Assembly (NCBI GenBank): GCA_002839445.1 | Contig: PGYB01000006.1 | Location: 1 to 64,000 of the forward strand | Length of the DNA stretch: 64,000 bases | Source: Candidatus Riflebacteria bacterium HGW-Riflebacteria-1 | GTDB taxonomy: Bacteria > Muiribacteriota > Ozemobacteria > Ozemobacterales > Ozemobacteraceae | Direction: 5' to 3' | Part shown: in pieces, positions 7,454 through 29,699 of the stretch | How positions within the stretch are numbered: the stretch's first letter is position 1 | Layout: the number at the start of each line of letters is the position of its first letter | Position numbers and translations under genes: made by a program | Notes under the pieces: generated by a model | Databases searched by the model: none | What the model was told of the DNA's origin: nothing | What the model saw: only the letters and a program-made list of their open reading frames with translations

Positions 7454-8914
7454 ATGACTAAGAGCAATAACTTTTTTTATAAATCGGTTCGGGTGGCTGC
7501 GGCCTGTGCTATTGCGATTTCAACGCTGTTTTCGCCGGTTGAAGCCAGGGTCAGAAACTTTGCCTCGGCAAAGGATGTGCAAAGTCTGAAGTTCTTAAGC
7601 GCCAACCACATGCCGGTCAAGGTGCTGGTTGTTTACTCTCCAAACCAGAAAAACCAGAATTTTGTTATCACACTGATGAATATTGTGGCTGATATGCATG
7701 ATAAGGGCCTGGTAAAGCAGGAAGACGCCTTCAAGGTGCATGTTATTCCCGGTTGGGAAATGCAGGAAGCCGATTACGCATTTATTCGCGAAAAAGTAGG
7801 CGCTGAGCGGGTTAAGAAGTATGTTGAATTTAACAACGTCTATACCACAACCGATATGTGGATGCAGGACTGGGGCGAAGTTGGCGTGGTTAAGCTGAAA
7901 AGTGAAAAGAAGCCGCAGACCGTGGTTTTTGACTCAAATCGTGGTCGTGACAATGCTGAATTACCGGGAATTCTCGCGAGTTTCTGGAATAGTTACCTGC
8001 TGAAAAACCCCTCGACACATTTTTCCGGTGGCGATTACGGCGGAAATATCGAGGTTACCCCCGACAACATTTTATTGATCGGCAACACTTCTACTCCTGA
8101 ATTGCGTGGCTTTCTGGAGAAAAATGGTTATAAGAATCGCATGGCGGTTCTCGAAACCGACTGGTTGCATGTTGGCCATGTTGATGAATACATTTCGGTT
8201 TGTCCAAATGCCAAGGCTGCTCGTGGCTATACGCTGATTAAAGCTAACCCGAGACTTGCTCTCAGGTTGATTAAAGATTCTTCCCTTGCAGATTTGCGGG
8301 CAATTCCGCTTAAAGATTACCGCGATGCGATGATCGAGGTGCGCAAATACCTTCTTAAAGCCGAAGTTAATCGAGCCGCCCAAAAAAAACGCAAGAATAA
8401 TGAAGCTTTGCCTGAAGATCAGAAATTTGGAGTTGCCGTGTTGAATTACCTCGAATTATCGGAAACTACCAGTGAATCAGGTATGGAACTGGCAACCGGC
8501 CACATGGTAAGAGGTTCTGAAGTTGAAGAATTTATCAAACTTAACCTTACTCTTGCCAATCTGATTGATGCCAACCTCAAAAAGGCCTGCGAAAAGATTT
8601 CTGAAGTGCGCAAGGAAAAGGAAGGCAAGCTTCATTCGATTATCTCGTTTCCGGCGCTGTTTCGCGCCATGTATGGCGGCAAACATATTGCATACATTCC
8701 TGGCAGCGTTAATCAGCTGATCTTGAACAACCAGCTTATCGTTCCGGATCCTAAAATAGAAATCATGCGGAAGTATATTGCCCGCACACTCGGCAAGATG
8801 GGGCTCCAGGCTAATTTTGTCGACTCGCTGCCTTATCATAATCTCCAGGGCCAGATTCATTGCGGCACCAACGTTTTCAGACACCCCAACAAGTATTTTG
8901 TAAAGCCTCGGTAA
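7454..8914 (+). CDS. Secreted guanidino-group modifying enzyme, porphyromonas-type peptidylarginine deiminase / agmatine deiminase-like, 486 aa.
   Basis: Signal peptide (VRVAAACAIAISTLFSPVEA). WMQDWGEV matches the WxRDxGP block. FSGGDYGGNIEVTPDNILLIGNTS matches EGGSI..DG.GTLL. The C-terminal GQIHCGTNV matches the catalytic Cys motif GGIHCITQQ of the PAD_porph/AguA family. RBS GAGGAG. Confidence 0.55.
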   Translation: MTKSNNFFYKSVRVAAACAIAISTLFSPVEARVRNFASAKDVQSLKFLSANHMPVKVLVVYSPNQKNQNFVITLMNIVADMHDKGLVKQEDAFKVHVIPGWEMQEADYAFIREKVGAERVKKYVEFNNVYTTTDMWMQDWGEVGVVKLKSEKKPQTVVFDSNRGRDNAELPGILASFWNSYLLKNPSTHFSGGDYGGNIEVTPDNILLIGNTSTPELRGFLEKNGYKNRMAVLETDWLHVGHVDEYISVCPNAKAARGYTLIKANPRLALRLIKDSSLADLRAIPLKDYRDAMIEVRKYLLKAEVNRAAQKKRKNNEALPEDQKFGVAVLNYLELSETTSESGMELATGHMVRGSEVEEFIKLNLTLANLIDANLKKACEKISEVRKEKEGKLHSIISFPALFRAMYGGKHIAYIPGSVNQLILNNQLIVPDPKIEIMRKYIARTLGKMGLQANFVDSLPYHNLQGQIHCGTNVFRHPNKYFVKPR

Positions 8915-18551: not shown

Positions 18552-18833
18552 TTATTCCTCCAACAGATACAAGATTAAACAAGTATACGCATATAGACTT
18601 CAGTCTGCAATAGTCAGACGATAGCCGATCTGGCAAACGTTCAGCCGTGCTCAAAGCTGGTTTCATGGTGAATTTATCAGTGTTATTGAGTAATCGCATG
18701 CAATCTCATCGCGCGGTAATTGGCCGTTTCGTTTGCGGGAAAGGGATTTCGAATTTGCCTGCCAGTCGCATGTTTGCGAGCTGCATGTATTTACAGTCCA
18801 CAGAATGTTGACGTCTTGGCTGTAACTTCGTTC

Positions 18834-18919
18834 GTTGAAACTTTGCCAGTAACTTACTGCAGGTTTACATAACTCGATAAGTTGAAACTTTGCCAGCAAC
18901 TTACTGCAGGTTTACATAA
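18834..18919. repeat. Tandem direct repeat of 2 x 39 bp with a 47-bp period, ending in the ...CAGGTTTACATAA motif. The same motif also starts the dif-like site downstream.
   Basis: GTTGAAACTTTGCCAG[T/C]AACTTACTGCAGGTTTACATAA occurs at 18834-18872 and again at 18881-18919. A third GGTTTACATAA occurs at 18953. Confidence 0.7.
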
Positions 18920-18949
18920 TTCCAGGCCTCCAGCCTGCTCGTTTATTTC

Positions 18950-18982
18950 TTTGGTTTACATAATATTTATTATCAGACGTTT
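18950..18982. other. dif-like (XerC/D-type) recombination site. Candidate attL of the downstream element.
   Basis: GGTTTACATAA-TATTTA-TTATCAGACGT versus E. coli dif GGTGCGCATAA-TGTATA-TTATGTTAAAT. The left arm and the CATAA-N6-TTAT core are conserved, while the right arm diverges. Confidence 0.4.
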
Positions 18983-19388
18983 ATTTACCATACCCTTACA
19001 ATAAGGATTAAGACAAGGAATGTCAAGTATTACTTTGTATGTCATTTATACCCCCCGTGAGACCGCTCGGGGGGATTCCAAAAAGTATGCAACTAAAAAT
19101 TAAGTAAAAACCATTGCCAAACAAAAGAAAGAAAAGCAAAAAATACCAATATAATGATAAAAAATCCAACTATGTAAACAGTAAATTTTGTGTCTGCAAT
19201 TTTAAAAGCAAGATAATCATACAAATTGAAATCTTTCATAAAAAAAACTCCTGCATAATTTGAAGCCAGACAACGACTAACAAAATAAGTGCTATAGCTT
19301 CTCGCTCTCTCGAAGCGCGATTAAAGCTATTGTTGTCTGGAATAGCTTTGTAATATTCTAACCTTTTTTTGGCTTTATGTGGAAAGAA

Positions 19389-19421
19389 AAAAGGGAACCT
19401 TTTCAGGTTCCCTCAATACGG
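19389..19421 (-). terminator. Rho-independent terminator at the end of the element operon.
   Basis: Read on the minus strand: GGGAACC-TGAAAA-GGTTCCC followed by TTTTTTCTTTCC. Confidence 0.5.
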
Positions 19422-19495
19422 CCGGCAACTTCTAGACCGCCGGCCGGCCGCTGACGGGTGCAAGATTTATTCCCCAGCCCATCAGCGGCCTAAGT

Positions 19496-20125
19496 TCAGG
19501 CAGCTTGGCCAAGCACTGGGTCAGAAGCATCAACACCAGCACCAGCATCATTAGATACCAGGCTGAAATTAGAAAGTTTCTCGTATTCTTTGATCATGGC
19601 ACCGACTGCTTCACTTGTGTAATAAGCACCAAGCTCGGTTTTGTTGTCATCAACCCAACCGATTTTGCCAAGTCCTGCAACACCGAGACCATCAGAAATC
19701 TGTGTAACAAGACCCTTGAGAGATGTTCTGGTGACATCATCAGTCGGCCACGGCACGAAAACCTTCTGCGACATGATCTTAGGTGCATCAGGGTCACAGC
19801 CGTTACTTGCAATAACTGAACCAGCAAGACGAAGGTTTGAAGGAATTACTTCAGGCATCTCGTCATTACGGTAGTGACCAAGAATCTTTACAAGCTTGGC
19901 AATAACGCCCATGGACATTTTACCGATCTGCTCCGCAATGTAAATTGCAAAAGCTTCAACGGCTGCCTCAGTTGTGCCTACTACTTCAAACTTGGTAGTA
20001 GCCCACTTTTTACGACCGCAAGCTTTATCAAGAGCACACATTGTAAGTTCATAGCGCCCTGCTTTAAGCTTACCATTAGCTGAACCATCAAGTTCGGCTG
20101 CGAAAGGGTAAAAACGAATGGTCAT
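19496..20125 (-). CDS. Hypothetical protein of 209 aa, last gene of the element operon and a possible structural protein.
   Basis: Strong RBS AAAGGAGG 6 nt before the ATG at 20125. No recognisable motif and no P-loop. Confidence 0.5.
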   Translation of the reverse strand: MTIRFYPFAAELDGSANGKLKAGRYELTMCALDKACGRKKWATTKFEVVGTTEAAVEAFAIYIAEQIGKMSMGVIAKLVKILGHYRNDEMPEVIPSNLRLAGSVIASNGCDPDAPKIMSQKVFVPWPTDDVTRTSLKGLVTQISDGLGVAGLGKIGWVDDNKTELGAYYTSEAVGAMIKEYEKLSNFSLVSNDAGAGVDASDPVLGQAA

Positions 20126-20135
20126 AAGACCTCCT

Positions 20136-21824
20136 TTATATTTTACGTGACGTAATGCGATCTTCGTCACTGTTTACGACAACTTCATTTTCAAGAACTT
20201 CTACTAATACCGGCTCGTAGTCTTGATGAAATACTTCAACAAGCCCCTTGGAAGGTTCTTGATTATCACCAACACAGCAACCTTCAAGTATTAACCCTTT
20301 ATCTACAATTTCAACAAGACCAAGCTCAGGATTGCATTCAGTTTCAGGCTTAATAACGCCCTTCTCAACGATACAAGCAATACCACGATCGCCACAAACG
20401 AGACTATCAGCAATAAGCTGTAATTTTGCCTCAATAGACATGTATTCTAACTCCTGAATTAAACAATCTTGGCCATTAAGACCGTCAACACCGTCTTGAC
20501 CATCAATACCAGGCAAACCGGTATCACCTTTATCGCCTTTAACACCTTGTAAACCTTGAACACCCTGTATACCTTGTATTCCTTGTGAGCCAGTATCACC
20601 TTTTTCGCCCTGAATACCCTGTATACCTTGTGGACCTTGAGCACCTTCTTGACCTTCCCACCCTACGCCTGGCTCGCCCTGTATACCTTGTATTCCTTGT
20701 GCGCCTTGTGAACCAGTTGCACCAGTATCACCCTTTACACCTTGGATACCCTGAACTCCCTGATCGCCAGTATCACCTTTATCACCCTTATCACCTTTAT
20801 CACCCTTATCACCTTTCTCACCCTTTACACCCTCAGTTGCACCAGAACGTATATTGAGAATCAAAGAATAAAGATTCTGTATCTGAACGCGCAAAGCATC
20901 ACAATCACAATCATTATCATTAGGTGGTGGTGGCTGAACACCTCCATCACGAGGAGTATCATCAGCATCAGCATCACAACAAACATCACCAGTATCTGAA
21001 AAGCCTGTAACCGACATATAGAGCGTTGTAAAGCGCTCAATATAGACATTTGTAAGACTTATACCAATACAAGATATCTCAGCAAAATCTTTACACTCAG
21101 AACAACTGGCAGTTGCAAAATTAACATCCTCAGAAAAACCATTACCAGCACCGATTATCAAACCGCCCATACCACCTGCAGGAATGGTATATTTACGTGC
21201 ACCTATCTGAACAACACCGTTTTTACTACTGCCTGATAAAGCTCTAAAAGAAACTCTATCGATAGTTTTCCATGCAGACAAAATACCATTAAGAGCATTT
21301 TGATCTGATAACCAATAATCACCAGCAGAAGGAATAACTATATCCTGAAAAAAAGTAACTTGTTTATTAAGAATATCAGTGCCAGTGATAGCTATACGGT
21401 AATTATCGGTATAAAACCGACTATCAGCACAAGTATTGAAAGCTGAAAACGCAAGAGTAATACTCGGATTAGATTTGTTCGGCTGACCAAAATCTACCCA
21501 ATTGACATCATCAAGAACCTTTGCAGATGTTATAGGATTAGAAAAATTGCTTGTAACATAATAAGCATATAAATCAGGCACACAAGAAGAAAATAAAGCC
21601 CAGTTTGTTACAGATGCAGAGTTAAGCTTAAGCTCAAACTTAGTAACACTCTTTAGGCGACTCATTGAAGCACTACCTTGTGCTGATTGAATAGCGCAAT
21701 ATCCTATTGAATTATCGTAATAAACACGCAATAGCAGCCATGAAGGATATGCAGTAACAACAGGAGGATTTGCAGCTTCTGTTATACGCACATCAAATTT
21801 AAGTTCTTTGAAAGAAATGGCCAT
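20136..21824 (-). CDS. Collagen-like triple-helix repeat protein of 562 aa: N-terminal globular domain, about 110 aa of GXY repeats, and a C-terminal domain.
   Basis: There are uninterrupted Gly-X-Y triplets (GEKGDKGDKGDKGDKGDTGDQGVQGIQGVKGDTGATGSQGAQGIQGIQGEPG...GLPGIDGQDGVDGLNGQ). The layout resembles phage tail-fibre or BclA-like collagenous proteins. TAATG overlap with the upstream peptidase gene. Confidence 0.8.
   Translation of the reverse strand: MAISFKELKFDVRITEAANPPVVTAYPSWLLLRVYYDNSIGYCAIQSAQGSASMSRLKSVTKFELKLNSASVTNWALFSSCVPDLYAYYVTSNFSNPITSAKVLDDVNWVDFGQPNKSNPSITLAFSAFNTCADSRFYTDNYRIAITGTDILNKQVTFFQDIVIPSAGDYWLSDQNALNGILSAWKTIDRVSFRALSGSSKNGVVQIGARKYTIPAGGMGGLIIGAGNGFSEDVNFATASCSECKDFAEISCIGISLTNVYIERFTTLYMSVTGFSDTGDVCCDADADDTPRDGGVQPPPPNDNDCDCDALRVQIQNLYSLILNIRSGATEGVKGEKGDKGDKGDKGDKGDTGDQGVQGIQGVKGDTGATGSQGAQGIQGIQGEPGVGWEGQEGAQGPQGIQGIQGEKGDTGSQGIQGIQGVQGLQGVKGDKGDTGLPGIDGQDGVDGLNGQDCLIQELEYMSIEAKLQLIADSLVCGDRGIACIVEKGVIKPETECNPELGLVEIVDKGLILEGCCVGDNQEPSKGLVEVFHQDYEPVLVEVLENEVVVNSDEDRITSRKI
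20771..20822. repeat. Tandem 18-bp (9+9) repeat inside the collagen-like gene.
   Basis: TCACCCTTATCACCTTTA is repeated about 3 times, encoding (GDK)n. Confidence 0.7.
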
Positions 21825-22213
21825 TAAATAATAACCTCAACATGCCAGCATTTTTGAACACTTACAGCATGCTTACCATTCGGACTAGTAACTAGTGCTG
21901 GACTGCGTAAGACACGGAACCGCTCAACATCAACGACAGGAGGGTTACTATAAACAGAAAATCCAGCAATAGGCACAAAATCGCGCGACATGCCCAAACG
22001 ATGAAGGGATTCCAACGCTCCATTATATTTTCTGTTAACAGACTCGGCTCTAAAGCCACTGGTAGCACGGAATTTACCCGGATTTTTTTCTTGAATCTCT
22101 GCCTCAATTCGCGATTGTATCGTGCGTATGAAATGTTGACAACACGGCGGCAACCGTTTAAACGCTTGAATGTTCGCACTTTCGAGGCAATCATAAGGCA
22201 TGTGACTCTTCAT
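21824..22213 (-). CDS. Peptidase M15 family protein (zinc D-Ala-D-Ala carboxypeptidase/endolysin-like, Peptidase_M15_3), 129 aa.
   Basis: ATSGFRAESVNRKYNGALESLHRLGMSRDF matches the SGYR..N...GG...S.H..G.A.D core of M15A/DUF882 cell-wall hydrolases. Confidence 0.55.
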   Translation of the reverse strand: MKSHMPYDCLESANIQAFKRLPPCCQHFIRTIQSRIEAEIQEKNPGKFRATSGFRAESVNRKYNGALESLHRLGMSRDFVPIAGFSVYSNPPVVDVERFRVLRSPALVTSPNGKHAVSVQKCWHVEVII

Positions 22214-22215
22214 AA

Positions 22216-22542
22216 TTAAGCCCAGTGATCATCATCAGACATATTCGCCATATCAGCACGAGATTCATCATCTGAGGAAATGATTTTTTCAACATAAAAA
22301 GAAATTTCTGGCGCATTGTATTTGCCGATTTTGAGAGTTGGTGAAAGCTGAATCTCCCGGCCTTCAAGAGCATCAGGAATCAATTTTTCAGGAATGTTTA
22401 CATCGAAATTGATGAAAAGTCCTGGGATGCCGATTGTTGCTTTTACATATTCTTTATCTTCATGTTTACGAGTTGTTACACGCAGTATCTGACCCTGAAG
22501 AACACCTTTAACGCCTCTTGCCAATGCTTCGAAAAAATTCAT
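22216..22542 (-). CDS. Hypothetical protein, 108 aa (element).
   Basis: ATG preceded by RBS AGGAGC. Acidic C-terminus. Confidence 0.45.
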   Translation of the reverse strand: MNFFEALARGVKGVLQGQILRVTTRKHEDKEYVKATIGIPGLFINFDVNIPEKLIPDALEGREIQLSPTLKIGKYNAPEISFYVEKIISSDDESRADMANMSDDDHWA

Positions 22543-22644
22543 TTTTTTTGCTCCTGAAAAGATTTTATTAGATACTCAAACGCCTGTGAATGAAGCTTGT
22601 TAACCTCATCAACAGATAATACACATGGTTTTATGTTTAAATTA

Positions 22645-22920
22645 CTATCCACGCAAATTAAAAACTCTATTGATAATGACATGACGAGAATAACCTGAAA
22701 ATGGTCTACCTTGATTTGAACGAAATACAGCCCTTGAATCAGCTTCTGCATTACGAATAGAAGGTATTAAATGAAAAGTTCCAGAAATAGAACTAGAATA
22801 AGAATAAGGTGAATGAGGATTGCGAGAACCCCAATTATTCCATGTTGCAGGAATCCATCTTCTACCATTTTCTCGTGAAGCATTTACAGAATAATTTTTA
22901 AAGCCTGATGATTTAATCAT
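22645..22920 (-). CDS. Hypothetical protein, 91 aa (element). Uncertain.
   Basis: An ATG at 22920 is used (the ORF-track start is a TTG). It overlaps an alternative 70-aa ORF at 22539-22751 in another frame, and only one of the two is likely real. Confidence 0.3.
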   Translation of the reverse strand: MIKSSGFKNYSVNASRENGRRWIPATWNNWGSRNPHSPYSYSSSISGTFHLIPSIRNAEADSRAVFRSNQGRPFSGYSRHVIINRVFNLRG

Positions 22921-22921
22921 T

Positions 22922-23179
22922 TTATTCAACCTTTACATTAATAAAATTTTCTTCGTCAGGCCTGCAAATATGCTCGTTTAAAGCAATATCTAACATAGTT
23001 TCCATTTCTGTATCTGTCCCAAAATAACCATCTCTTATTCTTTCTTCACAAAGTAAAAAATCTTCTTCTTTAACAAATTCAGCTGTCAATTTTTTTACTG
23101 ACATAGAATCACCGACAACAACGACACAAACAATGTAAGCAACGTTTTTTTGTTTTGGTAAAGTTATAGGTAATTTCAT
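22922..23179 (-). CDS. Hypothetical protein, 85 aa (element).
   Basis: ATG start, abutting the Rep-like gene (stop/start adjacent). Confidence 0.4.
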   Translation of the reverse strand: MKLPITLPKQKNVAYIVCVVVVGDSMSVKKLTAEFVKEEDFLLCEERIRDGYFGTDTEMETMLDIALNEHICRPDEENFINVKVE

Positions 23180-23881
23180 CTAAAACTCCTTTTCCTCATG
23201 TTCTGCCATGAGATCAAAAACACTCATGGAATCAGTATCTAATACAGGACGTTTACAAAAAATACGCTTCTCAAGCTGAATTGCGCGATTATAATTTGAG
23301 CGCATTTTGTTGATAGCGTCATTGTAACGACGAATATCATCGTTATCTTTTCGAATATATGAAGTATTCTGACTCTTAGGATATTCAAAACCCTGAAAAG
23401 AATAACGACGAAAGCATTGACCTAGAATCTCTCTATATAAAGAATCATAGCTTGACCATGATTCTGGACTGTTAATATAAACAGCGCGCCCTGTATCACC
23501 TTTAAACTCAAATTCTAAACGCCAAATAGCGGTAAAACCCTCATATTCAGGGTGTCTTAACAAAAAATGCGGGTCTTTTTCATCGGTAAGCTTGTCATAA
23601 ACACGAAGCAAAGAATCACCTGAATATGGGTTTGTGCGAATGATAGTTAAAATTTTGTCATCTACACGACCATAGAAAAGACTTTTTTGTCTGCTACCTG
23701 GCTGAGGTAAAACAGTTGGCACAGGTATATACCGCTCACCCATTGAAACGAAATCAACAGCGGCATCTACTCGCACTGGACAAATCTGTATCTCAAGACT
23801 TGACAAAAAACCTAAAAGTTGATTTACAAAATCAAATGAGAAGCCATAGCGGAAAAAAGTTCCGGCAAGTTTTATTGTCAT
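23180..23881 (-). CDS. Candidate rolling-circle replication initiation protein (Rep_trans/RstA-like), 233 aa. Tentative.
   Basis: CPVRVDAAVDF resembles the R-x-D-x-A-x-D block recalled for Rep_trans-family initiators. Tyr-rich stretches follow (YGRVDDK...RVYDK). It is the first gene of the operon next to the repeat boundary. ATG at 23881 chosen over the upstream TTG. Confidence 0.35.
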   Translation of the reverse strand: MTIKLAGTFFRYGFSFDFVNQLLGFLSSLEIQICPVRVDAAVDFVSMGERYIPVPTVLPQPGSRQKSLFYGRVDDKILTIIRTNPYSGDSLLRVYDKLTDEKDPHFLLRHPEYEGFTAIWRLEFEFKGDTGRAVYINSPESWSSYDSLYREILGQCFRRYSFQGFEYPKSQNTSYIRKDNDDIRRYNDAINKMRSNYNRAIQLEKRIFCKRPVLDTDSMSVFDLMAEHEEKEF

Positions 23882-24112
23882 TGCTGGATTGCGTAACCTT
23901 GGCCTGAGATCATGAAAAATAGTTATACCGTAGTCATCTGATCTCAAAGACTGGTAATAATGCTGGTTTCCGTATGATTCTCGGAACTCAATAGAAGATA
24001 AACATTTCTTTATCTCTTTGAGTATGTATTCAACTGCAACAAAGTCACACCAAATGCCGGTTTCAAACCAATCAAGATGATAGTTTGTTATGACACTCTC
24101 GTCACCTGACCC

Positions 24113-24132
24113 AATATTTATTATCAGACGTT
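24113..24132. repeat. Right-hand copy of the 20-bp direct repeat. Candidate attR or pseudo-dif half-site.
   Basis: Identical to 18962-18981. Only the central and right-arm part of the dif-like site is duplicated, and the left arm differs. Confidence 0.45.
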
Positions 24133-24252
24133 GTGCTTTTTGGGTAGGGGGTGGTGGGTATTGCCAATGTCGGGTTATACCGTTTATTTGGGCTCTCGGT
24201 ATGATCGCAGTTCTTCTAGCCTGAGCCGCCCGGCAGCCTCGTGCTTAAAATG

Positions 24253-24272
24253 CCCGCCTGCGCCCTTAGTCG
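24253..24272. repeat. Short dispersed motif TGCCCGCCTGCGCCCTTAGT, copy 3 of 3.
   Basis: See copies at 1-20 and 251-270. The surrounding 24180-24290 shares the blocks GGGCTCTCGG and CGCTTCAACT with 138-175. Confidence 0.45.
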
Positions 24273-24761
24273 CTTCAACTAACCGGATATTTGAGTCTGA
24301 CTTATTTATGCAGTTCCCAATAATACCCTGAAATATGAATTCTACTTATTTAGTTCGTTTTTTACTGTTTGTTTTCGTTCTCGTAATCGCAATCGAATCT
24401 CTTCGTAATCGATCTTCGTCTTCAGCTCTTCAATTCAGCCCCCAGTCGATTACGATTACCGCTTCGCTGAGCACGAGCACGGTTTGTAACGTGCAAGCCT
24501 GAATTGATGTTAACCAAGGCTTGGTAATATCTCGCCTGAACAAACGATGACTGCTGGGCTTCTTTTGTAATGCACTTGTATAAGCCAGTTCTGAGGATCT
24601 GCATATTCCAGTTCATCTGCGGCAGAAAAATAATCTCGATAAATCTTACAAATATACTGGATGCTGGCTGCGATACTTGATAACATTTTACAGGACGACT
24701 GAAAAAGTTTTTCTCTGGAGTCTTACGATACCCCGGAGATTATTGATCTTACGGAGCAACC

Positions 24762-26309
24762 ATGGATCTGACCCGCAAACTTGCCGACGTATCCAGGACT
24801 GAAAAAAGCCTGTTCCTGAAAAAAAAGCTGCGCGAACTGCGGCTGGTTTATCAGGTCGACCACATTACCGATCGCTACAAGAATCTTGTTTCGCTGTCTT
24901 CGGCCACGCTTAAACTTGCCCGAAAATTCTTCAAGTGCGAAGTCTCTGCCATTCTGGTTACTGACCGCGTGGCGCGCCATCGTCAATTTTATCTTGCTCT
25001 GGGCCTTGATGAATCTGACAAAGACACCAGCTTTCGTTTGAAAGAACTGATGCATAAATCGGTAACTTTCGAGGCTGGCGAAGAGATCGTTAACCGCTTG
25101 CAGCCGGTTACGGCAAAACCAACAGACTATATTCTGGTTGCTTTTCCGGTGTCTGAGCAGCTCTGTGGTTGCCTGCTCGTTGGCAACCGCGAAAAAACAT
25201 GGGATGAAGAAGATCTGCACTACTTGCGCGCAATCGTCTCGCAAATCGACAACGGCCTCGAACACGCCTTCCTCAAGCAGAAATATCAGCGCTCGCGCAC
25301 GCGAGCTGACCGTGAAACTCGCAAGTTGAGCTTTGTTTACGAAATAAGCCTCTCTCTCGGAAAAGACGAAGACTTCAGCTCTCTTTGCCGACGCATCCTC
25401 GAGAGTGCCATGCAGCTCGTCGATGTTAATCGCTGTTCGTTTATGAGCTATAACCGCGAAAAAGACGAGCTCAAGACCGAATTTGCCATTGGCATTCCCT
25501 TTACCAGATCACAGATAACTTTTAAGCTGGGCGAAGGCCTTGCCGGAACCGCTTTAAAGGAAGGGCGCCCTATTCTCGCCTCGCGTGGCGGCAAAGATGT
25601 CAGGTTTATCCCATACGATAACAACATTGAGAACATACCCTCAGTAGTTAACATGGCCTGCCTCCCCCTCATAGTAGAAGGAAGTCCTCTGGGTGTGCTC
25701 AACTTCAGTTCAACCGAACCTGATTATGCCGTAACTAATGACGAACTGGCCGCTCTCGAAGTGGTCACTCAACTCATCGGCCTGGCCTGGCAAAAGCAGC
25801 GACTCTACCAGATTTCTATCAAAGACGAACTTACCGGCATGTATTCGTTCAGATTCTTCAAGACGCGACTTCAGGAAGAAATGCATCGCGCCAGCCGCTA
25901 TGAAAGTGCCTTGAGCATTGTCATGTTTGATATCGATTTCTTCAAGAAGTTTAACGATAAATATGGTCATATGGCGGGAAACCTTGTTTTGCGAGAATTT
26001 GCTACAATACTTAATGACTCGGTCAGGTTCGGCGTTGATATCGCAGCCCGCTTTGGCGGCGAAGAATTCGCTCTGATATTACCAGGAACTTCTGGTGAAG
26101 GCGCGTTCGTTGTTGCCGAAAGAATTCGTCAGGCCGTCGAAAAGACAACTCTCAGCTTTGAGGCGCACAGTCTGCATGTCACAGTAAGTGGCGGAGTCAG
26201 ACAGTTCGCAGCAGGCATGACCCTTGAAGAGTTTATCAAATCTGCCGATGCGGCGCTTTATGAGGCAAAAGAAAGTGGTCGCAATCGCACAAAAGTTGCA
26301 TCAGCGTAG
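24762..26309 (+). CDS. GAF-domain diguanylate cyclase (GGDEF), 515 aa.
   Basis: The C-terminal GGDEF domain has RFGGEEFALIL and an upstream YSFRFFK...RY motif. The N-terminal half has two GAF-like regions. Confidence 0.8.
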   Translation: MDLTRKLADVSRTEKSLFLKKKLRELRLVYQVDHITDRYKNLVSLSSATLKLARKFFKCEVSAILVTDRVARHRQFYLALGLDESDKDTSFRLKELMHKSVTFEAGEEIVNRLQPVTAKPTDYILVAFPVSEQLCGCLLVGNREKTWDEEDLHYLRAIVSQIDNGLEHAFLKQKYQRSRTRADRETRKLSFVYEISLSLGKDEDFSSLCRRILESAMQLVDVNRCSFMSYNREKDELKTEFAIGIPFTRSQITFKLGEGLAGTALKEGRPILASRGGKDVRFIPYDNNIENIPSVVNMACLPLIVEGSPLGVLNFSSTEPDYAVTNDELAALEVVTQLIGLAWQKQRLYQISIKDELTGMYSFRFFKTRLQEEMHRASRYESALSIVMFDIDFFKKFNDKYGHMAGNLVLREFATILNDSVRFGVDIAARFGGEEFALILPGTSGEGAFVVAERIRQAVEKTTLSFEAHSLHVTVSGGVRQFAAGMTLEEFIKSADAALYEAKESGRNRTKVASA

Positions 26310-26384
26310 AATGTTCGAACTTGTAACAGTTTTTGCTGCGTTGAATATATTGACTCAGTGAACGCAAAACTTTATCATACCTGC

Positions 26385-27218
26385 ATGAATTTAACCGATT
26401 TAACCGCATCAGAAATTTCTGCACTCGACCGCGACGCCACGGTAGTTGTTGTACCGCTTGGTTCTATTGAGCAGCATGGCCCGCATCTGCCAGTCGCGAC
26501 CAAGTGCTTCCTCAGCGAAGCCATCGCTTTTGCCGCAGCTGCACGACTTCGCAGTGAGCAGCTCGAATGTCTGATCACGCCAACCTTTCCATTTATGCCC
26601 TGTCAGAGCAGCAGCGGCTTTGCATCCAATTTTGCCATGGCCGCGCGAACCTACTCTGACGCGCTTTATGAGATTGGCAGCTCTTTCTGTCGTGATGGTT
26701 TCAAATTTCTCTATTTTGTAAACCTCTCGGTATCGCCTGACGCAATCAAGGCAGTCAGCGTTGCAGTCGAGGATCTGAACACCCTCAAGGGTTTTCGCGC
26801 CTTTGACCCGATTCCGCTCTGGAACTTTTCGCCTAATGAAGAGCTTGAGTCGTTTATGCGGCAGCGTGGCGTTGACCCGGCCAATGAAATTCACGCCGAC
26901 ATCAAAGAAACCAGCGCTGCCATGCATCTTGATCCTGAGCTTGTGCGCGGCGACCTGCTGGCCGGTCTCAAGCCATGCCGCATCAACACTGCCTGGGAAG
27001 TCCTCAAAGGTAACTTTTCATTTCAGGAAATGGGCAGCACAGCCGGCTATCTTGGCTCACCTGCGCTGGCTGACCCTGAGCTCGGGCGTCTTTACATCGC
27101 CGAGGCCGCGTTTGCCCTTGCCGAATCAGTAAATTACACTCTTTCGGGAAACGACCTTCCTGAGTTGCCGCTGCAGATTCGCATGCTGCTGAAAATGGTC
27201 GATCTCGACGAAATGTAA
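26385..27218 (+). CDS. Creatininase family amidohydrolase, 277 aa.
   Basis: VVPLGSIEQHGPHLPV is the hallmark creatininase-family metal-binding motif. The ATG at 26385 is preferred over the GTG at 26358. Confidence 0.7.
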   Translation: MNLTDLTASEISALDRDATVVVVPLGSIEQHGPHLPVATKCFLSEAIAFAAAARLRSEQLECLITPTFPFMPCQSSSGFASNFAMAARTYSDALYEIGSSFCRDGFKFLYFVNLSVSPDAIKAVSVAVEDLNTLKGFRAFDPIPLWNFSPNEELESFMRQRGVDPANEIHADIKETSAAMHLDPELVRGDLLAGLKPCRINTAWEVLKGNFSFQEMGSTAGYLGSPALADPELGRLYIAEAAFALAESVNYTLSGNDLPELPLQIRMLLKMVDLDEM

Positions 27219-27430
27219 CGATAAATTTTTCCCCACATCCTGGATGTTATGTAAACCAATCTATATAATATCTGGCGAAAAGAAAACAAAAAGAAAAAAA
27301 AACTATTTGACAGTGGAAATATTTAATCGTTCGTGTTAGAATAGATTTTCCCATGATACTTAGCCCTTACCTGTTACGCGGTTTAACCTCGAAAACCTTG
27401 ATTACACTCAAAAGTTGGGAGTAAAGAAAA

Positions 27431-27742
27431 ATGTACGCCATTATCGAAATCGGTGGAAGACAGTATAACGTCGAGAAAGGCAGCCGTCTGCGCTGTGAAA
27501 AACTCGACCAGGAAGCCAATGAAATCATGTCAATCGACAAGGTTCTCATGGTTAAAGACGGCGAGAAGCTGCAGATCGGTCATCCTTATGTTAAGGGTGC
27601 CGAAGTAAAAGCCAGAATCGTCGGCCATGCACGTGGCAAGAAGATAATTGTGCTCAAATACAAGAGCAAGAGCAATTATCGCCGCAAAATCGGTCATCGC
27701 CAGCACTTCACCTCGGTTCTCATCGAGGAAATCAAGTGCTGA
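27431..27742 (+). CDS. rplU: 50S ribosomal protein L21.
   Basis: MYAIIEIGGRQYNVEKG... matches L21 along its full length. RBS GGGAG. Confidence 0.9.
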   Translation: MYAIIEIGGRQYNVEKGSRLRCEKLDQEANEIMSIDKVLMVKDGEKLQIGHPYVKGAEVKARIVGHARGKKIIVLKYKSKSNYRRKIGHRQHFTSVLIEEIKC

Positions 27743-28051
27743 ATGATACAGGTCGACTTCACTGACGACGGTAACGCCGTCTGTCTGAAGGTCACCGGTC
27801 ATGCGGGCCTTGCCGACAAAGGAAGCGACATTGTTTGTTCAGCGGTCTCGGCTCTGATACAGACATTCGCCGGTGGAGTCGAAAGCGAACTGCAGGCATC
27901 ACTCAGCGGTCATCTTGATTCAGGCAACTGCAACATCAGGATACAGGTTGATGAAAGCCACAAACAGGCGCTAAGGGCAGTTTATAAAGTATTTAAGTTC
28001 GGGTTCCGTAAGATCGCAAGTTCTTACCCGGAACAAGTTAAATTGAATTAA
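27743..28051 (+). CDS. prp: Ribosomal-processing cysteine protease Prp (DUF464).
   Basis: Lies between rplU and rpmA. KVTGHAG...DIVCSAVS carries the His/Cys catalytic dyad motif. Confidence 0.75.
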   Translation: MIQVDFTDDGNAVCLKVTGHAGLADKGSDIVCSAVSALIQTFAGGVESELQASLSGHLDSGNCNIRIQVDESHKQALRAVYKVFKFGFRKIASSYPEQVKLN

Positions 28052-28469: not shown

Positions 28470-29639
28470 TTAGCGGAGGTCGTGAAATTGCTTTTCTCTG
28501 CTGATTGAGTTTAAGTCGATACTGGCAATGATTTCGGCGATTTTTCGAGCTGAATCTTTGCCTTCATAAGGATTGGCAAAAAGGGCGCACTTCTCGCGAA
28601 ACCCGTCTGCCAGCAACCGGCCAAGGGCCTGCAGAATCGCGGCTTCGTCAAAATCGGCAGTGATAACTGTCTGGCTGTGCGGTCTTCCTTGCTGCCGCCG
28701 CCCGATGTTGAGCACCGGCACACCAAGAGATGGCACTTCGATAATGCCGCTTGATGAATTGCCGATGACACAGCGGGCCAGCCGCGCGGCCGACAGGTAA
28801 TTCAAACGTCCCAGACTGCTGAAAAAGCAGATGCTTTCAGGTTCAATATCGGCCTGCGCCTTAATATAAGCGTTGATTTCTTCGCCTTCCGGGTCAGCGT
28901 TGGCGCCGGTAATGAGCAGGCGTGTTCCCGGGTATGTCTTTATAAGCAGTGGCAGCAGTTGTTTGATGCCATTGAGAGCAGCTCCGGGGCTACAGGTCTG
29001 GGGGTGAAGTGTAATCAGAAAGAAGTCGTCAAGAGCACATTTCGTGAGGTCTTCGAGCTGAGATCGCTGCAAAAAGGGCAGATCGGCAAGATCGGCCAGG
29101 CCGAGGTCGCCGGTATTGAAAACCAGTTCGGGGATTTCTCCGAGCTGAATAACGCGCCGACGATAGTCTTCGGTAGCGGTAAAATGCAGGTCGCTGAGTT
29201 TGCTGATGCAGTGGCGCAGAACATCATCGAAGGCGCCAGCAGTAAGCTCGCCACCAGAAATGTGCGCGCTTCTGATGCCGAGCAGGCGGCATGCGGTTGC
29301 AACCGCGTAGATTTCATAGCGGTCGCCCAGATAAACGACGAGATCGGGTCTGAACATGTCAAACAATTTCGGAAATCTGGTAAGAGCGCCTGCCATGGCT
29401 GCAAACATAAGTGACTGATTATCCTGCGCACCGTTTTCTGGTGTTATGTAAACTTGATGATAATCCTCTCCGATATCCTTGCTGATTTCTTCGGCAGAAT
29501 AATCGCTTTGATAGTGCAAATGACTGCCGGTTACTACCACGCTGACCCGCGAAACCCTTTTCTGCAGCTCATCATGGAGAGGGCGCAAAATCCCCCACTC
29601 TGCCCGCGACCCAGTTATAATACAAATATGTTTGCTCAT
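28470..29639 (-). CDS. UDP-N-acetylglucosamine 2-epimerase (hydrolysing, NeuC-like; Epimerase_2 family), 389 aa.
   Basis: KHICIITGSRAEWGILRPL...VVVTGSHL resembles the NeuC/SiaA N-terminus. An ATG at 29639 is used (the ORF-track start is a TTG). Confidence 0.6.
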   Translation of the reverse strand: MSKHICIITGSRAEWGILRPLHDELQKRVSRVSVVVTGSHLHYQSDYSAEEISKDIGEDYHQVYITPENGAQDNQSLMFAAMAGALTRFPKLFDMFRPDLVVYLGDRYEIYAVATACRLLGIRSAHISGGELTAGAFDDVLRHCISKLSDLHFTATEDYRRRVIQLGEIPELVFNTGDLGLADLADLPFLQRSQLEDLTKCALDDFFLITLHPQTCSPGAALNGIKQLLPLLIKTYPGTRLLITGANADPEGEEINAYIKAQADIEPESICFFSSLGRLNYLSAARLARCVIGNSSSGIIEVPSLGVPVLNIGRRQQGRPHSQTVITADFDEAAILQALGRLLADGFREKCALFANPYEGKDSARKIAEIIASIDLNSISREKQFHDLR

Positions 29640-29699
29640 AGTGCTGATTTTAATGGTGCAACCCGGCTTAATCAAGCAAAAACTGATCTTATAGCAAAT

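Follow-up and report, generated by a model that had tools for sequence, protein, structure and literature searches.

A chromosomal dif site with a probable Xer-dependent integrated element and neighbouring lone XerD arms in Candidatus Riflebacteria

The stretch of DNA analysed here (the window) comprises the first 64,000 nt of contig PGYB01000006.1 from Candidatus Riflebacteria bacterium HGW-Riflebacteria-1 (GCA_002839445.1), a host assignment that agrees with a match of 100% identity to a protein named from this bacterium. The window holds the dif site of the host chromosome, a 5,151-bp element that appears to have integrated at that site, and further copies of one dif arm that stand alone nearby. 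dif is the 28-bp site at which the recombinases XerC and XerD resolve chromosome dimers. One full dif site occurs in the window, and its plus strand reads GGTTTACATAA-TATTTA-TTATCAGACGT. The features that define the site and the two ends of the element are the following.

18953-18980, minus strand: host chromosomal dif, a 28-bp site reading ACGTCTGATAA-TAAATA-TTATGTAAACC on the minus strand, with the XerD arm at 18953-18963, the central region at 18964-18969 and the XerC arm at 18970-18980
18962-18981, no strand assigned: left copy of a 20-bp direct repeat, AATATTTATTATCAGACGTT, which takes in the whole central region and XerC arm, with 2 nt of the XerD arm before them and 1 nt after
18982-24132, minus strand: integrated circular element of 5,151 bp, read as an integrative mobile element that exploits Xer (IMEX), with all genes on the minus strand and no integrase
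24104-24131, minus strand: hybrid junction site, with the XerC arm at 24121-24131, the central region at 24115-24120 and a degenerate XerD arm at 24104-24114
24113-24132, no strand assigned: right copy of the 20-bp direct repeat, AATATTTATTATCAGACGTT, 5,151 nt from the left copy

A previous reading of the window, made from the letters alone (the sequence-only reading), had proposed a dif-like site within 18834-18982. The sequence, at 18953-18980, is as it described and of genuine dif type, and the right junction indeed keeps only the central region and one arm (24113-24132). Independent metagenome assemblies of the same organism (L001-L005; related contigs and loci are given such L numbers throughout) have the same sequence as the window, including both 47-bp units discussed below.

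We conclude that 18953-18980 is the host chromosomal dif. Scanning one genome per species (185,579 species, 596 billion bases) with the pattern CTGATAATNNNTATTATGTAAACC matched 73 species, with one site per genome, whereas the chance matches to its 21 specified bases are estimated at fewer than one in 596 billion bases. Many of the matches come from Riflebacteria (Ozemobacter, Rifleibacterium, Ozemobacteraceae). A closed Riflebacteria chromosome of 5.21 Mb, OZ223236.1, has its dif match near 3.39 Mb. Thirteen loci are identical to the window dif at all 28 positions, eight of them under a Riflebacteria-type title, and in this respect the proposal of a dif is borne out by its relatives. Variation in the XerC arm is concentrated in the outer four bases, in agreement with the published rule of a better conserved XerD arm (PMC2731167, PMC3025954). 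GC skew, pooled over the 42 loci with at least 1.5 kb on either side, is +0.039 on the XerC side and -0.033 on the XerD side; its sign switches at the site, and 32 of the 42 loci show the direction expected of a terminus (Wilcoxon p=2e-6). The surroundings are also shared, as dif adjoins creatininase, rplU, prp and rpmA genes in at least 14 relatives, with the same synteny as the window. In the window itself rplU, prp (ribosomal-processing cysteine protease) and rpmA lie at 27431-28051 and downstream, about 3 kb from dif, and the dif-creatininase-rplU neighbourhood is conserved across many Riflebacteria.

The identity of the two arms follows from published sites. The dif of B. subtilis is ACTTCCTAGAA-TATATA-TTATGTAAACT and that of E. 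coli is GGTGCGCATAA-TGTATA-TTATGTTAAAT (PMC3025954), and delta-proteobacterial examples are TTGTCCTATAAGATATATTATGTAAACC in Syntrophus aciditrophicus and ACGTCCGATAATATGGATTATGGTAACT in Anaeromyxobacter (PMC2731167). The minus-strand arm TTATGTAAACC agrees with the XerD arm of B. subtilis at 10 of 11 positions and with that of S. aciditrophicus at all 11 (PMC3025954, PMC2731167). The other arm, ACGTCTGATAA, corresponds to the XerC arms of Myxococcales sites, with agreement in the inner part, GATAA. The sequence-only reading had called GGTTTACATAA the XerC arm because it compared the site with E. coli only; with that sole reference both orientations score nearly alike, since the arms are partly palindromic. 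We reverse this assignment: the wider comparison identifies GGTTTACATAA as the XerD arm, and what remains at the right junction and in the attachment site of the element (attP) is the XerC arm. Xer-dependent elements of this kind usually keep the XerC arm.

Comparison with relatives that lack the element identifies the 5.15 kb as an insertion exactly at dif. In HGW-Riflebacteria-2 (L043) and Rifleibacterium amylolyticum (L035) dif is empty, lying uninterrupted between a 598-aa gene homologue and a GGDEF gene homologue. The element is not present in the syntenic relatives L043, L035 and L020, and in all three the right flank of the window (GTTGTG...) directly abuts dif. The element has a GC content of 36-43%, against about 49% in its flanks, and the crossover is located within the 20-bp repeat segment 18962-18981. 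No integrase or transposase was found when all open reading frames (ORFs) were compared with Pfam, the main ones with PHROGs, and a tyrosine-recombinase regular expression was applied. The window contains no tRNA gene, which excludes an attachment site of the tRNA type, and Rfam gave no match in 16000-28000.

A free form of such an element is represented by L079, a contig of 4,858 nt that is circular by its 28-nt terminal overlap. It carries a single dif-like site, ACGTCTGATAA-TAAATA-TTGAGTCGACA, and the two flanks of this site are homologous to, and colinear with, the two ends of the window element. Across the XerC arm and central region attP is identical to dif at 17 of 17 positions, and the degenerate XerD arm of the window element, TTGGGTCAGGT on the minus strand, matches the dif arm at 5 of 11. 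A related element at the same locus of another Riflebacterium (L082) has the same junction structure. The circular form of the window's own element is a reconstruction made by joining its ends, with the junctions ...TTTGGTTTACATAATATTTATTATCAGACGTTGTGCTTTTTGGG for the empty site and ...CACCTGACCCAATATTTATTATCAGACGTTTATTTACCATACC for the circle. One contig of the same organism (L005, Logan SRR3546455, 3,162 nt) has as position 1 the last-but-one base of the dif XerC arm, where occupied and empty sites would diverge, an end point expected if both kinds of site coexist in that sample.

These comparisons uphold the earlier proposal of a Xer-dependent integrative element at dif: one site is complete and the other hybrid, an integrase is lacking, relatives have the site empty, and a circular relative carries the matching attP. 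By such sequence comparison, the reading of the element as an IMEX that is integrated at dif, without a recombinase of its own, is well supported. From the sites we infer the Xer dependence of integration, the order of strand exchange and poor XerD binding by the TTGGGTCAGGT arm. In the mechanism that we propose, a 5,151-bp circle would have been integrated into dif by the host XerC and XerD, recombining within the shared 17-20 bp. The products would be a complete dif with the host XerD arm (18953-18980) and a hybrid site with the poor XerD arm of the element (24104-24131).

The element has about nine genes on one strand, namely rep, several small ORFs, a weakly matched M15 peptidase, a 562-aa and a 209-aa protein, and small ORFs of 39 and 48 aa. 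Its principal features are listed here.

18989-19026, minus strand: displaced rep promoter and start, with the promoter-like TTGACA-17-TATTGT at 19026-18998 (10 of 12 matches) and ATG at 18991-18989
19496-20125, minus strand: conserved protein of 209 aa with unknown fold, the hallmark of the family of small circular genomes to which the element belongs
20136-21824, minus strand: 562-aa protein with collagen-like G-X-Y repeats, putative fibre or spike
21824-22213, minus strand: 129-aa protein with a weak Peptidase_M15_3 match that is stronger in homologues on related contigs
23180-24130, minus strand: rep body, Rep_trans-fold rolling-circle initiator, whose frame crosses the hybrid site (codons RLIINI) and whose start codon is lost

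Homologues of the largest conserved proteins of the element occur on small contigs only; these relatives are all 4.3-4.9 kb long, and two of them are demonstrably circular. The 209-aa protein has no match in IMG/VR or among PDB sequences, and searches of INPHARED and IMG/VR returned nothing except the collagen repeats. When the whole element was compared with phage records (blastn), again only these repeats matched, to tail-fibre genes; the 562-aa protein is probably a fibre or spike. Neither the Zot/pI assembly ATPase nor the F-type capsid protein, the hallmarks of Inoviridae and Microviridae, was found with Pfam or PHROG. The element is an IMEX, and its family is new and an orphan in the databases: the phage collections searched hold no relatives. 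It is plausibly a small virus, and could also be a plasmid-like replicon.

The position of attP suggests how integration may bear on replication. Joining the ends of the element restores an intact ORF of about 320 aa, beginning MVNKRLIINIGSGDES... (MVNKRLIINIGSG...), in which the XerC arm and central region encode RLIINI, and the circular relatives are arranged likewise. attP makes up codons 4-13 of rep. Because it lies inside the first rep codons, integration parts the rep body from its promoter and ATG by 5.1 kb, and the integrated rep body has no start codon before the upstream stop. Accordingly arranged, rep would be silenced by integration and Rep would be made only from the excised circle, which is predicted to replicate by rolling circle with its Rep_trans-fold initiator. 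After integration the displaced promoter and ATG are aimed across dif and the lone arms at the host 598-aa gene on the same strand (start 18551), and the ORF left behind at the displaced rep start has 11 codons and terminates in the XerD arm. From this arrangement, read-through from the rep promoter into the host gene is possible. Between the last small gene and the rep promoter, the otherwise AT-rich element has a GC-rich hairpin (19051-19074, with a 7-bp C/G stem) whose folding energy is weakly better than that of shuffles (z=-1.8); it is a candidate terminator or replication origin.

The Rep family is very small, with 41 clusters among 1.84 billion representatives. The Rep of the element has the Rep_trans fold. 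The Pfam models Rep_trans and Phage_CRI match none of the seven Rep members; searches of IMG/VR, INPHARED (tblastn), PDB sequences, PDB with the Rep profile and Pfam likewise returned no match, and no exact Rep protein with the long start annotated is on record. Eight Rep homologues keep an N-terminal xLIINIxS or xPIINIxS peptide, and more distant ones begin after it. Three homologues (P0007, P0025, P0037) have PIINI in place of LIINI, which in frame would correspond to ACGTCCGATAA, the XerC arm of published Myxococcales dif sites; this suggests that sister elements may target other hosts. Two relatives of about 4.7 kb, L083 (circular, its ends overlapping by 121 nt) and L084, have the 209-aa protein, M15 peptidase and large protein in common with the element. 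Their replication genes are unrelated (PF23343 REP_ORF2-G2P; PF01719 Rep_OBD) and they have no dif-like site, so that the attachment site travels with the Rep_trans-type rep. At the level of gene content this points to modular exchange of rep.

Outside dif, on the XerD side and further away on the XerC side, the window holds the following copies of the XerD arm.

18823-18916, no strand assigned: tandem 47-bp duplication with units 18823-18869 and 18870-18916, 87% identical, each with one lone XerD arm
18862-18872, minus strand: lone XerD arm, TTATGTAAACC, oriented like the dif XerD arm and 91 nt outside it
18909-18919, minus strand: lone XerD arm, TTATGTAAACC, oriented like the dif XerD arm and 44 nt outside it
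27247-27257, plus strand: distal lone XerD arm, TTATGTAAACC, between the creatininase gene and rplU, on the XerC side, inverted, with its TTAT end facing dif
29444-29454, plus strand: distal lone XerD-arm-like copy, TTATGTAAACT, with 1 mismatch, inside the ORF 28470-29675

The sequence-only reading had noticed the tandem 47-bp unit ending in ...GGTTTACATAA and a threefold occurrence of the motif near the left junction, and both are as it reported (units 18823-18869 and 18870-18916; exact GGTTTACATAA at 18862, 18909 and 18953 on the plus strand). A 39-nt core of the unit has exactly two copies, at 18834-18872 and 18881-18919; Tandem Repeats Finder did not report the two-copy 47-bp array. Beyond the three copies noticed before, there are a fourth exact 11-mer on the opposite strand (27247-27257) and a conserved copy with one mismatch (29444-29454). 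The former is conserved at the same position in L035, L043, L020 and L076, and exact copies stand at the offset equivalent to the latter in L035, L020 and L076. Allowing up to one mismatch, GGTTTACATAA occurs seven times in the window against 0.65 expected, a number reached in 0 of 100 shuffles. Direct reading of the sequence next to the lone arms showed no central region and no XerC-like arm at 6 nt (3-4 of 11 matches).

At the empty sites of L043 and L035 one exact GGTTTACATAA lies 59 and 58 nt, respectively, outside the dif XerD arm in the same orientation, and the spacer between it and dif is unrelated to that of the window. The lone arm is therefore older than the insertion. Its counterpart in the window is the arm at 18909-18919 (the single arm at +58/+59 in L035 and L043), and the one ancestral lone arm near dif would have become two here by the 47-bp tandem duplication.

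The same pattern extends to other loci. Around the 73 dif sites there are 49 extra exact arm copies against 0.25 expected, and the 24 Riflebacteria loci (229 kb) have exact lone arms of the XerD type in 47 places and of the XerC type in none. Within 150 nt of dif they number 1.6 per kb, and from there to 8 kb 0.1-0.4 per kb (0.1 at 4-8 kb); beyond 8 kb there is none in 43 kb of the window. In nine Riflebacteria loci besides the window a copy in direct orientation lies 58-104 nt beyond the XerD arm, beside unrelated genes. Most copies on the XerC side are inverted; the interval from the creatininase gene to rplU is a frequent place for them, and in L036, L060, L018 and L054 they form arrays with a 41-47 bp period. 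Of the arms with at most one mismatch, 54 have the TTAT end toward dif and 16 have it away, counts that are not independent, given related loci and tandem copies. The lone arms have a flank consensus of their own, RGWG-TTATGTAAACC, which differs from the dif central region. A different layout is seen in eight Syntrophobacteraceae-like loci (L014, L019, L037, L038, L039, L049, L058, L072), where a conserved inverted XerD-arm-like motif, ccAGGnnTACATAA, lies 26-29 nt beyond the dif XerD arm; the result is a head-to-head pair of XerD-type arms, unlike the direct lone arm of Riflebacteria.

There are several possible explanations for the arms and for the insertion itself. The sequence-only reading took the three GGTTTACATAA copies as scars of successive Xer-dependent elements, the footprint of an array. 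Such elements do accumulate in arrays at dif (PMC6744903), and the copies here are in tandem directly beside a dif that now holds such an element. This account is nevertheless very unlikely, and we do not retain it: a lone arm stands at the same position in relatives whose dif is empty, and the copies are XerD arms only, on the XerD side. Elements whose XerC arm is good and whose XerD arm is degenerate leave XerC-arm and central-region remnants, and on the other side (compare 24104-24131), whereas the 229 kb hold 47 lone XerD arms and not one lone XerC arm, no central region or XerC arm accompanies them, and their RGWG flank is their own. Somewhat less improbable, although still unlikely, is that the lone 11-mers are sites of another protein or promoter elements whose likeness to the XerD arm is coincidental. 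The motif contains TTTACA, a -35-like hexamer, its RGWG flank is unlike the dif central region, and in L043 and L035 it lies about 20 nt upstream of a plausible -35 of the homologue of the 598-aa gene. Chance likeness is hard to reconcile with 47 exact dif-arm 11-mers packed within a few kb of dif and none in the remaining 43 kb of the window. The arms also stand beside unrelated genes with unrelated spacers (L009, L050, L059, L062), between the creatininase gene and rplU, and inside an ORF, and their orientation bias follows dif and not the genes.

As for the site and the insertion, the former could be a pseudo-dif or secondary attachment site, and the island could have been inserted by a transposase or a since-lost integrase with a 20-bp target duplication. 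Direct repeats that flank islands do arise by other mechanisms too, and the window shows no GC-skew switch. We consider this the least probable of the alternatives and extremely unlikely, as the repeat falls exactly on the XerC arm plus central region, and the free circular relative has no dif-like sequence other than that 17-mer. The site, moreover, occurs as a single copy, is conserved across 73 species and shows a skew switch when loci are pooled, transposase and integrase were not found, and a 20-bp target duplication that matches a conserved recombination site is unexpected from transposition. The joint reading, of a chromosomal dif with an integrated Xer-dependent element and pre-existing lone XerD arms, is the one that we hold with good confidence.

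Several observations weigh against this joint reading. GC skew in the window alone is +0.015 to the left and +0.010 to the right (plus strand), without a switch, and the genes right of the site are mostly on the plus strand; the placement of the terminus at this site, which the sequence-only reading had made its test, therefore holds for the pooled relatives and rests on them, and is not reproduced by the window's own skew. The genes xerC and xerD lie outside the window, and their presence in the genome is assumed; no tyrosine-recombinase motif was found by regular expression in the window or in any Riflebacteria locus. A metagenome scan with a 19-mer, which found further dif loci, gave no empty site or circular form of this exact element, and for a circle the evidence is that of a relative with 67% identity in Rep. 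The element yielded no homologue of capsid or morphogenesis proteins. As to the lone arms, about half of the Riflebacteria loci have none within 150 nt of dif. Nine of the 26 XerD-side arms point away from dif, which makes the orientation no more than a tendency. The arm of L043 and L035 is situated about 75 nt upstream of where the neighbouring gene starts, and a promoter-linked role is possible there.

What the lone arms do may be approached through B. subtilis. According to papers that cite Karaboja et al. 2021, the B. subtilis terminus has XerD-only dif-like sites (XDS), at which XerD unloads SMC and of which arrays are effective (PMC11840125, PMC10945525). The lone arms share the defining features of such sites, a XerD half without a XerC half in the terminus region. 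Among known sites they most resemble XDS, and by this analogy their most likely role is XerD binding without recombination, as at XDS where XerD unloads SMC. Binding and function are suggested here by the arm sequence, its orientation and its position. Riflebacteria may keep dedicated, conserved RGWG-TTATGTAAACC half-sites near dif for marking the terminus, either in SMC unloading or in the staging of FtsK and XerD. The element, for its part, may belong to an undescribed family of circular virus-like genomes of about 4.3-5.2 kb, whose Rep_trans-type members have attP at the start of rep. Taken together, a set of XerD-only terminus-marking sites in Riflebacteria and an element family with a Xer-switched rep form a proposal that we advance tentatively, its chances being somewhat short of even. 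If it is true, Xer recombination itself switches replication on by excision and off by integration, and the XDS principle extends to a distant candidate phylum in a layout that is polar and much tighter.

We know of no dif described for the candidate phylum Riflebacteria, and to our knowledge this is the first Xer-dependent integrative element known in it. The locus provides a well-supported dif for a candidate phylum known only from metagenomes. An attP inside rep would couple replication to excision. If XerD binds the lone arms, XerD-only terminus sites are older and more widespread than the single Bacillus case, and could be found from sequence alone in uncultured bacteria.

Elsewhere in the window, an 834-aa ORF lies at 11273-13777 on the plus strand, with neighbours at 7454-8914 and 13845-16555. 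The product of its counterpart in the identical contig L001 has a match to the major vault protein shoulder domain (PF11978; Vault_3 faint). Homologues of vault proteins are unusual in bacteria. The vault-like ORF adjoins a peptidylarginine deiminase (PF03068) and several genes for B12-binding radical SAM proteins.

Compared with the known chromosomal dif sites of E. coli, B. subtilis and the delta-proteobacteria (Carnoy & Roten 2009, Kono et al. 2011), the Riflebacteria site has the same 11-6-11 architecture and one copy per genome, and likewise a variable outer XerC arm and, in pooled loci, a skew switch. It differs in its TAAATA central region and in the lone XerD arms that accompany it.

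The element is like TLC-phi, a satellite phage of Vibrio cholerae, and TLC-like IMEXs in being without an integrase, at dif, replicating by rolling circle (as predicted here) and measuring about 5 kb (PMC6744903, PMC9226527). It also has a TLC-like attP, double-stranded with a good XerC arm and central region (17 of 17) and a XerD arm far from that of dif (5 of 11). In elements of the TLC-phi type the poor XerD arm is considered a protection against excision driven by FtsK, with a working dif still in place (PMC6744903). Unlike TLC-phi, the element has no XafT (DUF3653), which was not matched by any ORF, the small ones being searched even to E=1; its host phylum and gene content are different, and its attP lies inside the rep coding sequence. 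Like CTX-phi it is a rolling-circle element exploiting XerCD at dif, but the CTX-phi site is a hairpin folded from single-stranded DNA with two inverted dif-like sites, whereas there is one site here, with a fully matching central region. A single dif-like site is present in the circular L079 and a single one in the reconstructed element, which is not the attP of the CTX type. Lacking XafT and having one site per genome, the element belongs neither to the TLC family nor to the CTX type. The gonococcal genetic island of Neisseria is large and carries type IV secretion genes, whereas the element here is a 5-kb replicon with free-circle relatives. Relative to Rep_trans initiators of the pT181 RepC/RepD type, its Rep has no Pfam match and has an N-terminal extension encoded by the attachment site.

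The lone arms, set against XDS as the citing papers describe them, are like these in being dif-like, without a functional XerC half, beside dif in the terminus region and in several copies. Unlike XDS, they are known from sequence alone and lie within a few kb of dif, often at 40-110 nt; they sometimes form arrays with a 41-47 bp period and mostly face dif. A dif with an integrated element and XerD-only sites are both known in kind, and what is new is the phylum, the orphan element family with attP inside rep, and the tight, mostly dif-facing arrangement of lone XerD arms.

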